Assembly (NCBI RefSeq): GCF_001457615.1
Contig: NZ_LN831024.1
Coordinates: 2,700,001 to 2,732,000 of the forward strand
Source: Pseudomonas aeruginosa
GTDB lineage: Bacteria > Pseudomonadota > Gammaproteobacteria > Pseudomonadales > Pseudomonadaceae
Direction of reading: 5' to 3'
Length of the DNA: 32,000 nucleotides
Part shown: positions 17,321 through 19,984 of the stretch, one piece after another
Numbering within the stretch: position 1 is the first letter of the stretch
Layout of the letters: each line of letters begins with the position of its first letter
The notes under the pieces: model-generated
Databases searched by the model: none
What the model was told of the DNA's origin: nothing
What the model saw: the letters and a program-made list of their open reading frames with translations, nothing else
Program-made: the position numbers and the translations under genes

Positions 17321-19984
17321 CTACTCACACTGTTTGGGTGCATCTTCCGAGGGTGGGTCATATGGAGAACACAGCATATAACATGCCGTGCTGCTTACTG
17401 CGGCCCTACAAGCCGCACCAGCAGGCGTTAGCGGACCCCCAAGAATGCCGCATGGGACGCTAGTTGCTCTGCAAATCATCCGGCAATTGGATGGAATTCT
17501 GGTGTCACGTCCATCCCCATTCCTCATTACGCACTCTGCAGTCAGGCACTTTGCAGCAGGGTTAGGTGGTGGTGGATTCAGAATGCAACGTGTTTTTAGT
17601 CCATTATATCTGTCCCAATAAACCTCCATGTGACTACCCACGCCACAAAGCCCGTTGGGGTCAAAGTAATTTATTGGATTTCCAGTTACATACCCGAATG
17701 TATTAAGTCCTCCTGCCAACCCAATCGGATCACTCTCCACATACCGCCCAGTCTCCGGATCATAGTCGCGGAAGTAGTTGTAGTGCAGCCCGCTCTCCGC
17801 ATCGTAGTACTGCCCGGGGAAGCGCAGGTTGACCTGGGTGCTGCCCTGGCTCAGCGCTTCGCCGCGGCCGAAGGCGTCGGACTGCCACTGCCAGGCGATC
17901 TGGCCGCTGGCATCGGTGGCCAGGCGCGGGGTGTCGAGGTGGTCGCCATGGAGGTAGAGCAGGGTCGGGTTGCCGACCTTGCCCTGGGCGTCGTAGTCGG
18001 CGTCGATGGTGGCCAGCGGCAGGCTGTCCAGCCACAGGTAGTACTGGGCTCGCAGTTTCCGGCCGCTGCCGTCGTGTTCGGCTTCGCTGAGCAATTGGCC
18101 GTCGGGGCCGTAGAGGTAGGTGGTGATGCTTTCGGGGGTGAGCTTGACGATGCGCTGGCCGAGGGCGTTGTAGCGGTATTCGGCGACCTGCTGGCCGTCG
18201 AGGCTGACGCTTTGCAGGCGGCCCTGGGCGTCGTAGGCCAGTTTGCGTGCGGGGCGGTCCTGGGTGAGGTTGCCGGCGGCGTCGCTGGTCACCACTTGCG
18301 TGCCGATGGCGGTCAATCGGTTGCTGTCGGGCGCGTACTGGTAGTCCTGGCTGCTGGCGGTGCCGCCTGAGGCGGGGTTGTCGCTGCGTTGGGTGCGGTT
18401 GCCGACCGCGTCGTAGGCGTAGCTGCGCCCGCCCTGGACGCCGCGTTCCTCGGTCAGGCGGTCCAGCGGGTCGTACTGGTAGTCCAGGGTGCCCCAGAGG
18501 CTGTGGCGGTGCTGCTGGATATTGCCATTGGCATCGTGCTGGTAGTCGCTCTGCCAGGGGCCGACCTTCTGCCGCAGCAGTTGGTAGTCCTGGTCGTACT
18601 CGCGGCTGAGAGTGATGCCGTTGCCCCAGGTCAGGCGCTGCAGCGGGCCGAAGGGCAGGTAGGCGATCTGCCCGACCAGGGTGCTCGGCGCCTTGTCGCC
18701 TACTGCCAGGGTCACGCTGGCGACCTGGCCGCCGGCGTTGCGCGGGTAGCCGATGGCGAGGCCGGAGGGGTAGCCGATCTCCAGCAGTTGGTTGGCCGCG
18801 TCGTAGCGGTAGGTCACGCGGTCGAGCAGGGTCTGCTGGTCGAGGCGGATGCTGCGTACCTGCTCGACCAGGTTGCCGCGCTCGTCGTAGCGGTACACCA
18901 GGCTGTCGCGGGCACCTTCGATGGCGCCCAGGCGGCCGATGCCTTTGTTGCCGTCGGCGGTGAGGTCGTAGCGGTACTGTACGTCGAGGCTCGGGTCGCT
19001 CGGCGAGTGGCGCTCGATCAGGCGATTGAGGGCGTCGTAGCGATACTCGGTGACCGCACCGCGAGCGTCGGTACGGCGGATGACGTTGCCGGCGGCGTCG
19101 TGCTCGAAGGTGGTGGTGCCGCTGTCCGGGCTGACCAGTCGGGTCAGGTTGCCGAGGCCGTCGTATTCGTAGCGGGTGGTGACGCCGCGCGGGTCCTTGA
19201 CCTCGGTGAGGTTGTCCTGGGCGTCGTAGGCGAGTCGGGTCTTGCCGCCGAGGGGATCGCTCTGGCCGACCAGCCGGTCGAGGGCATCGAAGGCCTGGCT
19301 GTGGGCGAACTGGCGCGGGTTGGTTTCGCCGACCGGATTGTCGTTGAGGTCGTAGGCGAAGCTGCGTGTCTGGCCGCCGGCGCCGACCGCGCGGAGCAGC
19401 CGGCCAAGCTCGTCGTAGGCCCATTGCTGCTGGCGCACCAGGCTGCCGCTGGCGTCCTTGATGCGCTGGGCGGTGCGATTGCCCTTGGTGTCGACGTCGT
19501 ATTCGAGGCGTTCGCCGAGGTTGTTGCCGATCGCCACCAGGCGCCGTGCGTCGTCGTATTCGTAGCTCAGCCAACTGCCGTCGCCACGGGTGACGCGGGT
19601 GATCTGGCCGACCGCGTCGTAGTCGAAGCGGGTGGTGCTGCCGGCGGTGCTGACGGAGGCCAGCCAGCCGTCGACGCCGGTGTAGGCGAGGCTGCTGGTG
19701 ACGCCGTTGGCATCGGTGATGCTGCCGGGCTTGCCGCGCTCGTCATAGTCGCCGAGGCGGGTGACCTGGCCGAGGGCGTTGGTCACCTGGGTCAGGTTGC
19801 CGCGACTGTCGTAGGCATAGAGGGTGACGTCCTGCACATCGGTGCGCGGACCGTCGGCGCGCTCGATCAGGCCGAGGGCGTTGTAGCTGTAGCTCCAGGC
19901 GCGCTCGGCCGCCTGCGCGGGCAGGGCGAGGGCGAGGGCCAGGGCGAGGGCGCCGAGACGGGGGAAGTATGGGGGGATGCGCAT
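17321..19984 (-). CDS. RHS repeat-associated core protein (C-terminal shell half) with Sec signal peptide and a novel Cys-rich C-terminal toxin domain
   Basis: 887 aa with the signal peptide MRIPPYFPRLGALALALALALPAQA|AE. There are many YD repeats (YxYDxxGNL/R type). The RHS core ending is PGQYYDAESGLHYNYFRDYDPETGRYVESDPIGLAGGLNTFGYVTGNPINYFDPNGL (DPNGL at 17648-17662). A 108-aa tip with 11 Cys follows (17324-17647). Confidence 0.9.
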   Translation of the reverse strand: MRIPPYFPRLGALALALALALPAQAAERAWSYSYNALGLIERADGPRTDVQDVTLYAYDSRGNLTQVTNALGQVTRLGDYDERGKPGSITDANGVTSSLAYTGVDGWLASVSTAGSTTRFDYDAVGQITRVTRGDGSWLSYEYDDARRLVAIGNNLGERLEYDVDTKGNRTAQRIKDASGSLVRQQQWAYDELGRLLRAVGAGGQTRSFAYDLNDNPVGETNPRQFAHSQAFDALDRLVGQSDPLGGKTRLAYDAQDNLTEVKDPRGVTTRYEYDGLGNLTRLVSPDSGTTTFEHDAAGNVIRRTDARGAVTEYRYDALNRLIERHSPSDPSLDVQYRYDLTADGNKGIGRLGAIEGARDSLVYRYDERGNLVEQVRSIRLDQQTLLDRVTYRYDAANQLLEIGYPSGLAIGYPRNAGGQVASVTLAVGDKAPSTLVGQIAYLPFGPLQRLTWGNGITLSREYDQDYQLLRQKVGPWQSDYQHDANGNIQQHRHSLWGTLDYQYDPLDRLTEERGVQGGRSYAYDAVGNRTQRSDNPASGGTASSQDYQYAPDSNRLTAIGTQVVTSDAAGNLTQDRPARKLAYDAQGRLQSVSLDGQQVAEYRYNALGQRIVKLTPESITTYLYGPDGQLLSEAEHDGSGRKLRAQYYLWLDSLPLATIDADYDAQGKVGNPTLLYLHGDHLDTPRLATDASGQIAWQWQSDAFGRGEALSQGSTQVNLRFPGQYYDAESGLHYNYFRDYDPETGRYVESDPIGLAGGLNTFGYVTGNPINYFDPNGLCGVGSHMEVYWDRYNGLKTRCILNPPPPNPAAKCLTAECVMRNGDGRDTRIPSNCRMICRATSVPCGILGGPLTPAGAACRAAVSSTACYMLCSPYDPPSEDAPKQCE

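Follow-up and report, generated by a model that had tools for sequence, protein, structure and literature searches.

A cysteine-rich Rhs tip and its putative immunity gene

The stretch of DNA analyzed here (the window) comprises 32,000 nucleotides (nt) of Pseudomonas aeruginosa, positions 2,700,001 to 2,732,000 of contig NZ_LN831024.1 in assembly GCF_001457615.1. On its minus strand it carries an rhs locus that ends in a putative toxin/immunity cassette, namely, the C-terminal tip of an Rhs protein and the small gene behind it. The Rhs protein has 887 amino acids (aa) and is the product of the open reading frame (ORF) at 17321 to 19984 of the window. Its residues 704 to 779 (17648 to 17875) match the NCBIfam Rhs-associated core domain TIGR03696 over positions 3 to 76 of 76 (E = 6e−24), and the match stops precisely at the leucine of the motif DPNGL, residue 779. 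The variable tip starts at residue 780 and runs to residue 887, which corresponds to 108 aa encoded at 17647 to 17324. Within the core domain lies the stretch YYDAESG...RDYDPETGRY, which we take to be the site of the autoproteolytic aspartates. This motif is intact in the sequence, and both the release of the tip and its toxicity are predicted.

The tip contains 11 cysteine residues, at positions 1, 21, 34, 39, 55, 59, 66, 80, 89, 93, and 107, and the 779-aa core contains none. An initial annotation of this DNA, made from the letters alone, had placed a 108-aa tip with 11 cysteines at 17324 to 17647, directly after DPNGL, and translation reproduces its coordinates and its cysteine count exactly. 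The cysteines are separated by 19, 12, 4, 15, 3, 6, 13, 8, 3, and 13 residues, and the lack of any CxxC spacing argues against zinc clusters. The tip also has an NPPPPNP stretch and a C-terminal half rich in small and hydrophobic residues, and the mini-protein is basic overall. An antisense ORF of 73 to 77 aa is open across the tip-coding region both in the window (17388 to 17621, plus strand) and in the metagenomic locus L001 (3150 to 3371, minus strand); constraint on the sense frame probably accounts for it.

What kind of domain is the tip? It had no match in Pfam or NCBIfam at an E-value of ≤1, and five family members (see below), each scanned alone against Pfam, had none at an E-value of ≤10. 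PDB sequences gave no match at an E-value of ≤10, either to the tip alone or to a five-member profile. The earlier statement that the tip resembles no recognized nuclease, deaminase, ADP-ribosyltransferase, or peptidase holds for all three libraries, Pfam, NCBIfam, and PDB sequences. Several motif-based ideas were also discarded: a loop of the secreted phospholipase A2 type (CGxG) with a catalytic histidine, ruled out because His6 is serine in the homologue of locus L005 and because there is no HD motif; a deaminase motif of the form (H/C)AE...PCxxC, ruled out by the wrong spacing; zinc clusters, for want of CxxC; and kinship to another Cys-rich tip of the same locus (P0012), dropped at a BLASTP E-value of 1.7.

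A phmmer search of 1.84 billion cluster representatives returned only three relatives of the tip: P0001, a 224-aa metagenomic Rhs fragment; P0002, a 1664-aa Rhs protein of Marinobacterium rhizophilum (WP_083928372.1); and P0003, a 100-aa fragment. With the downstream gene as a guide, two further carriers of the tip were found, in the loci L007 (83% identity) and L005 (63% identity). A word-indexed homologue search found nothing with the tip alone as the query and only the truncated fragment P0003 with a profile; a single-protein scan of genome contigs found nothing, and tblastn gave no match among plasmids and phages.

The five full-length lineages of the tip share 52 to 83% identity, and all 11 cysteines are invariant in all five. 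Also invariant are G2, G4, S5, D12, P25 to P27, N29, P30, K33, the VMRNG-x2-RDTR block, R60, P65, G70, P75, G77, R81, and V84. Glu38 is replaced by aspartate in L007, and the replacement of His6 by serine in L005 removes the sole candidate catalytic histidine of the tip. Pairwise ratios of nonsynonymous to synonymous substitution rates (dN/dS) lie between 0.07 and 0.29, and synonymous sites are saturated or nearly so. We conclude that the tip is a genuine conserved domain under strong purifying selection and, given the 11 invariant cysteines in five homologues and these dN/dS values, not a chance product. Its position at the end of the core, its five lineages, and its invariant cysteines agree with the initial assignment as a polymorphic-toxin tip of an unrecognized family.

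The putative cognate immunity gene, assigned by synteny and hydropathy, lies at 17019 to 17312 on the minus strand. It encodes 97 aa from an ATG at 17312, and an alternative GTG start at 17321 overlaps the rhs stop codon. The protein begins with a CPxC...CxxC zinc ribbon followed by two hydrophobic segments, which we read as two transmembrane (TM) helices. A homologous gene of about 95 aa lies directly 3′ of the tip in all nine loci that were compared (L001, L002, L003, L004, L005, L007, L009, L010, and L011). These span at least four lineages, L001 and L002 being metagenomic, L003 from Marinobacterium, and L009 to L011 from P. aeruginosa, and in most of the nine the tip stop codon and the immunity start codon overlap or abut. 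The membrane-embedded immunity protein proposed earlier for this gene is supported by the two TM segments and by the pairing that is kept in nine loci.

Across lineages the immunity protein is 27 to 33% identical (31% with the Marinobacterium copy, E = 2e−14), with invariant residues in the ribbon (its four cysteines) and in the membrane segments (F54, F55, P60, W72, and D75). Searching 5.8 billion proteins with a profile brought up only ten members of the family, and none of the ten has a Pfam domain. In its CxxC-(~17-20)-CxxC ribbon followed by hydrophobic helices the protein is like TIGR04104 (cxxc_20_cxxc) and the N-terminal module of PqiA, and all four family members tested gave weak matches to both; these and a weak zinc-ribbon match of the window protein are all below the cut-off. 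At about 18 to 20 bits in the comparison as a whole, and at 18.1 bits for TIGR04104 (cut-off, 45) and 15.2 for PqiA (cut-off, 260) for the immunity protein itself, the scores are far under the curated cut-offs, so the likeness is one of architecture only. Applied to the alignment, the positive-inside rule predicts that the ribbon and the C terminus are cytoplasmic and that the periplasmic loop has only 3 to 5 residues. Two-TM proteins are rare downstream of other Rhs cassettes (1 of 32). Judged from the conserved pairing, the tip and the small gene are a toxin/immunity cassette, and the two proteins represent a new family of a familiar type of system, that of the Rhs polymorphic toxins.

The Rhs carrier and the mobility of the cassette

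The carrier of the tip is divided between two genes, both on the minus strand. The upstream N-gene (19999 to 21540) encodes 513 aa with a signal peptide, a Cys-containing variable domain, DUF6531, and the first RHS repeats. DUF6531 and RHS_repeat score above the Pfam cut-offs, and there is one sub-threshold match to BigA_N. Its product probably forms the N-terminal half of the shell. Beginning 15 nt past the N-gene stop, the C-gene encodes the 887-aa protein described above, with a Sec-type signal peptide at 19910 to 19984 (MRIPPYFPRLGALALALALALPAQA, followed by AE) and a Cys-free RHS/YD-repeat shell at 17876 to 19909 (RHS_repeat PF05593, E = 4e−65 in 11 stretches; TIGR01643, E = 4e−56; YD_repeat_2x). 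Each of the two shell genes comes with a separate ribosome-binding site and Sec-type signal peptide, the latter assigned by eye and from hydropathy. The same two-gene layout occurs in L008 (2391 to 6670), which is the same locus in another P. aeruginosa strain, and in L005 (153 to 5966), which has a GC content of 56% and two N-gene copies and probably comes from a different organism. In Marinobacterium the carrier is very different: P0002 (L003, 3303 to 8297), a single polypeptide of 1664 aa, has, besides its signal peptide and RHS repeats, a Peptidase_C39-like domain and, ahead of the core end, an inserted dockerin type I domain.

The Sec signal peptides named in the initial annotation are, as far as sequence can tell, present at the start of both rhs genes. 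More generally, all three complete carriers (the window C-gene, the L005 C-gene, and the Marinobacterium protein P0002) start with a Sec-type signal peptide. Neither the two Rhs proteins nor the other window ORFs scanned matched PAAR, VgrG, Hcp, or another component of a type VI secretion system (T6SS). This absence, together with the signal-peptide starts, argues against a T6SS-delivered Rhs effector. Another Rhs protein of P. aeruginosa, RhsT, has an Ntox43 tip and has been placed in a signal-peptide class assigned to the type II secretion system (PMC3482391). The rhs locus is flanked by a FecR/TonB-receptor/PepSY_TM siderophore locus on one side and by an acetyltransferase on the other.

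The carrier is widespread in P. aeruginosa, and its tip varies. The identical 887-aa protein is present in NCBI as a P. aeruginosa “RHS repeat domain-containing protein” (AKO86627.1 and others; four contigs), and its 90%-identity cluster has 2977 members with at least seven different tips. The tips of the other alleles are mostly unannotated; one is Ntox16, and one has a glycine zipper. Variation also affects the N-gene, whose first ~355 aa (20474 to 21540, minus strand) are strongly divergent between P. aeruginosa strains and are encoded at low GC content. This portion holds the signal peptide, the variable Cys-containing domain, DUF6531, and the early repeats; the first ~100 aa of the N-gene product have no similarity between strains, and the last ~160 aa are nearly identical. 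With a divergent N-gene start and a variable tip, the rhs operon is polymorphic at both ends. The N-terminal domain of the N-gene product could be a targeting module.

Blastn comparisons point to the way in which the present cassette arrived. The window from 20473 to 17727 is 98% identical to L008, which has a different tip, and from 17988 to 16788 the window matches, at 97% identity, an orphan cassette of this tip and immunity gene in L009. The tract common to the L008-like resident core and the L009-like incoming cassette, 17727 to 17988 (minus strand), is likely the homologous-recombination junction. The GC content starts to drop there, from about 0.69 to about 0.50 near 17800, and remains low to 15400. 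In three other P. aeruginosa loci (L009, 1342 to 2063; L010, 2 to 747; L011, 2 to 747), an identical tip with a 97%-identical immunity gene stands as an orphan behind a different main tip, and one of the orphan-bearing P. aeruginosa contigs was seen in at least 20 samples. By these comparisons the cassette is mobile, serving as the main tip here and as an orphan in other strains of the species.

A displaced older cassette lies further downstream (16333 to 16762, minus strand), where the window is 86% identical to the end of the P0012-type tip and its immunity gene in L008 (6566 to 7219). Of this tip only the last ~100 nt remain (16666 to 16762), and its immunity gene (16333 to 16665) is intact and encodes a 110-aa protein with two TM segments. 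The P0012-type tip has 9 cysteines in 82 aa. Hence, two unrelated Cys-rich tips of this locus both pair with membrane immunity proteins. A truncated copy of the present tip occurs in L004 (1371 to 1950), where the C-terminal half, from the residues DTR onward, directly follows the YDPETG of an Rhs core, and this chimera retains a complete immunity gene amid an array of other orphan cassettes.

A repeat of ~185 nt with terminal inverted repeats of ~30 nt stands directly 3′ of the immunity gene (16788 to 16970), with a second copy at 16145 to 16309. Further copies lie in L008 (7030 to 7219, 7439 to 7620, and 9264 to 9403) and in L009 (911 to 1093, 2094 to 2278, and 3012 to 3151). One copy lies 3′ of each immunity gene, between the cassettes; the repeat has the appearance of a miniature inverted-repeat transposable element and an RNA fold z-score of −3.0. 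No Rfam family matched it at the gathering score, Rfam was empty across 15000 to 22000, and a promoter and terminator scan gave only background-level signals. The low-GC island contains two further ORFs on the minus strand, one of 78 aa at 15388 to 15624 with a match to DUF7336 (E = 1.6e−8) and one of 122 aa at 15759 to 16127 without a match; both may be additional orphan immunity genes. The edge of the island has an imperfect 36-nt palindrome at 15294 to 15375 (78% complementary, with a 10-nt spacer), and the adjacent 15301 to 15378 match the end of the L009 island at 97% identity.

The site of action of the tip

Where would such a tip act? We consider it probable, if only narrowly so, that it is a disulfide-stabilized mini-protein, that it attacks the inner membrane from the periplasm, and that it is neutralized within that membrane. 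According to this hypothesis, the two rhs products would be exported by Sec and would build a cage round the tip, which the aspartyl autoprotease of the core would then cut off. In the oxidizing envelope the tip would gain about five disulfides, with one cysteine to spare. Once freed in the periplasm of a neighboring cell, the compact, basic tip would dock on the periplasmic face of the inner membrane, on a lipid or an integral protein, and would compromise membrane function in the way of a class II microcin. The immunity protein would neutralize the toxin, or the complex of toxin and receptor, inside the membrane, and its zinc ribbon would face the cytoplasm.

We favor this hypothesis because all three complete carriers have signal peptides, P0002 has extracellular-type domains (dockerin and Peptidase_C39-like) as well, and no T6SS linkage was found, because the core is Cys-free and the tip has no CxxC, and because the immunity protein has two TM segments with almost no periplasmic loop. 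Proteins of this kind are rare downstream of other Rhs tips, and the P0012-type tip of the same locus also comes with one. Precedents exist for the separate elements of the proposed mechanism: Tse5 is an Rhs pore-former (PMC10684867), the tip of a teneurin-like protein is toxic only when a signal peptide sends it to the periplasm (PMC13018210), there are periplasmic effectors that depend on DsbA (PMC5792426), and Bcn-A is a secreted Rhs bacteriocin (PMC7259588). The initial annotation had called a site of action outside the cytoplasm atypical for an Rhs tip. This was overstated, considering the membrane-acting tips of Tse5 (PMC10684867) and of the teneurin-like protein (PMC13018210).

A number of points weigh against an action from the periplasm on the inner membrane. 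The Rhs tips of E. coli K-12 contain 3 to 9 cysteines (9 in the 150 aa of the RhsC tip), and other Cys-rich tips, with 7 to 11 cysteines, precede ORFs for soluble proteins; the density of cysteines alone can therefore not place the action of a tip in the periplasm. The initial annotation had used this density as a pointer to an oxidizing compartment. The richness is real, but the argument is weaker than claimed, and the signal peptides, the two-TM immunity protein with its tiny loop, and the absence of a CxxC-type metal motif are better ones. On the whole, the initial annotation describes the tip correctly, and its interpretation is plausible and in part supported. Moreover, 11 is an odd number, so full pairing of the cysteines is impossible. 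The largest 17-residue Kyte-Doolittle mean of the tip is 1.15 in the window and 1.59 in Marinobacterium, both below 1.6, and Pfam shows no glycine zipper in it. Without a TM-grade segment and a glycine zipper, classical pore formation is unlikely, and a pore-forming tip of the Rhs or colicin type was rejected on these two grounds. Structure prediction does not help either. AlphaFold2 returned a beta-rich model from the single tip sequence (predicted local distance difference test score [pLDDT], 64) and a model with a helical C-terminal half from a four-sequence alignment (pLDDT, 47); because the two disagree, neither was used for inference. A Foldseek search of the tip against the PDB found nothing below an E-value of 0.69. 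Finally, the conserved zinc ribbon of the immunity protein, predicted to be cytoplasmic, would be just as compatible with a toxin being caught in the cytoplasm.

This last point leads to a different explanation, which we judge unlikely on the whole: the tip would be a small toxin, either an enzyme or a stoichiometric inhibitor, that crosses the inner membrane to act in the cytoplasm, and the ribbon would bind it at the membrane exit. The cysteines would then stabilize the domain merely in transit, or bind metal. The nuclease domains of contact-dependent inhibition systems and of colicins do cross the inner membrane, and RNases can be domains of ~100 aa. The four cysteines of the ribbon are invariant, the conserved polar motif ECVMRNGxGRDTR and the invariant residues R42, R47, D48, R50, R60, and R81 resemble a binding or active site, and the tips of the E. 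coli Rhs proteins are likewise Cys-rich on carriers without signal peptides. Against an enzyme, however, stands the lack of a match to any nuclease, deaminase, ADP-ribosyltransferase, or peptidase family, and the only histidine of the tip (H6) is not conserved. A metal-binding role for the cysteines finds no CxxC or CxxH motif in the tip. In addition, a membrane anchor with invariant intramembrane residues would be unusual for immunity against a soluble enzyme, and 31 of the 32 ORFs downstream of other Rhs cassettes lack two TM segments.

The arguments from export and oxidation apply in the same way to an oxidized tip that binds a soluble or outer-leaflet target in the periplasm, such as lipid II, peptidoglycan precursors, or the assembly machinery of lipopolysaccharide or outer membrane proteins. 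The absence of TM-grade hydrophobicity in the tip would suit such a target, and disulfide-rich peptides of the defensin type that bind lipid II exist. Immunity would then have to be indirect, for example, through an inner-membrane receptor that the immunity protein masks or modifies, as direct sequestration is hard to picture with a protein that exposes only ~3 to 5 residues to the periplasm. The tip also lacks similarity to known cell-wall toxins, and we rate this explanation as improbable, somewhat more so than action in the cytoplasm. A role outside bacterial competition, as an anti-eukaryotic effector like that proposed for RhsT or as an adhesion or structural module, with the downstream gene unrelated to immunity, seems to us very improbable. 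Host-interaction proteins do often contain disulfide-rich domains, and RhsT of P. aeruginosa has been tied to activation of the host inflammasome, with a tip class that reportedly lacks immunity genes (PMC3482391). The tip studied here, in contrast, is coupled to a homologous small gene in nine of nine loci, mostly with overlapping or abutting codons; it occurs in orphan arrays of tip and immunity gene; and it is found in a marine Marinobacterium and in environmental metagenomes.

Related systems and the parity of tip cysteines

The locus shares many features with the rhsA-E type of E. coli, namely, RHS repeats, a core that ends in DPxGL, a low-GC variable tip with an adjacent immunity gene, orphan cassettes, and displacement by recombination. 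It differs in that the tip and the immunity protein are outside the described families, the carrier is split into two genes with signal peptides, there is no linkage to PAAR, VgrG, or a T6SS, and the core is Cys-free. Two polypeptides also form the TcB-TcC cocoon of Tc toxins, a YD-repeat cage that encloses an autoproteolytically released C-terminal toxin. However, the N-gene product has no SpvB or beta-propeller domain, there is no TcA-like gene among the window ORFs scanned, and both halves of the present shell have signal peptides. Moreover, the presence of an immunity gene points to an antibacterial role, unlike that of a Tc toxin.

For the proposed mode of action, the closest analogy is with class II microcins such as MccV and its immunity protein Cvi. 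These microcins are small, rich in glycine, alanine, and serine, contain disulfides, and act from the periplasm on the inner membrane, and their immunity proteins have ~70 to 100 aa and two or more TM helices. The present tip, in contrast, is the end of an Rhs protein, with no double-glycine leader and no ABC exporter. As no sequence similarity to class II microcins was detected, the analogy concerns the working mode and not membership. Among Rhs proteins, Tse5 (PA2684), likewise from P. aeruginosa, is a cage with a tip that targets the inner membrane and not the cytoplasm, and it is delivered by a T6SS (PMC10684867). Compared by features only, the present tip differs from that of Tse5 in having 11 cysteines and neither a glycine-zipper match nor a TM-grade segment. 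Bacterial teneurin-like proteins combine a Sec-exported YD-shell with a polymorphic tip of ~15 kDa, and one such tip, toxic only if directed to the periplasm, permeabilizes cells from there (PMC13018210). Here, the comparison is one of architecture and not of tip sequence: the present carrier has no match to the FN-plug, NHL, or TTR superfold, its TEN_YD-shell match is weak and below the cut-off, and its shell, unlike that of the teneurin-like proteins, is split into two genes.

The odd number of cysteines, probably five pairs and one more, is not peculiar to this tip. At this kind of locus, all tips have odd counts (11, 9, 7, 5, 5, 5, 5, 5, 5, 3, 3, and 1). We extended the count to rhsA-E of E. 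coli K-12 with their orphans (L012 to L016) and to 51 Rhs core ends from viral contigs, and clustering gave 49 tip families. Four of these have no cysteine, 12 have one, 3 have two, 11 have three, none has four, 11 have five, 1 has six, 3 have seven, none has eight, 2 have nine, none has ten, and 2 have 11. Odd counts are thus found in 41 of the 49 families and even counts in 8 (binomial P = 2e−6), in a modest sample with automatically set tip boundaries and for an idea that was formed post hoc. In the sets outside the origin of the idea, a hand count gave ~28 odd families versus 8 even ones. No parity bias is seen in the ORFs that immediately follow the tips (14 odd versus 18 even), and the extra cysteine of the odd-count tips has no fixed position. 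Such a “2n+1” rule could reflect a reserved thiol, used as a tether for the toxin or for disulfide reshuffling after the tip has been threaded from the cage.

Taken together, these features can be assembled into a speculative model, which we put forward tentatively and consider unlikely. The locus would represent a T6SS-independent system in which a two-subunit Rhs cage is exported by Sec and assembled in the periplasm, the polymorphic domain of the N-subunit provides targeting, and microcin-like, disulfide-rich toxins are delivered to the envelope of neighboring cells. The eleventh cysteine of the present tip would be a case of the 2n+1 rule.

In summary, our analysis describes a toxin/immunity pair that is without annotation in the libraries searched and that is rare, accounting for three clusters at 50% identity in a set of 1.84 billion representative proteins. 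Its carrier belongs to a near-core and barely studied Rhs system of P. aeruginosa that is marked by Sec-type signal peptides and not by T6SS linkage, and the cassette gives a starting point for learning how Rhs cages exported by Sec get to other cells. If the odd-cysteine pattern is upheld in larger data, it would point to an unrecognized step common to the delivery of Rhs toxins. If the tip acts on the envelope, it would be a small and tractable probe for a possibly new vulnerability of the inner membrane.

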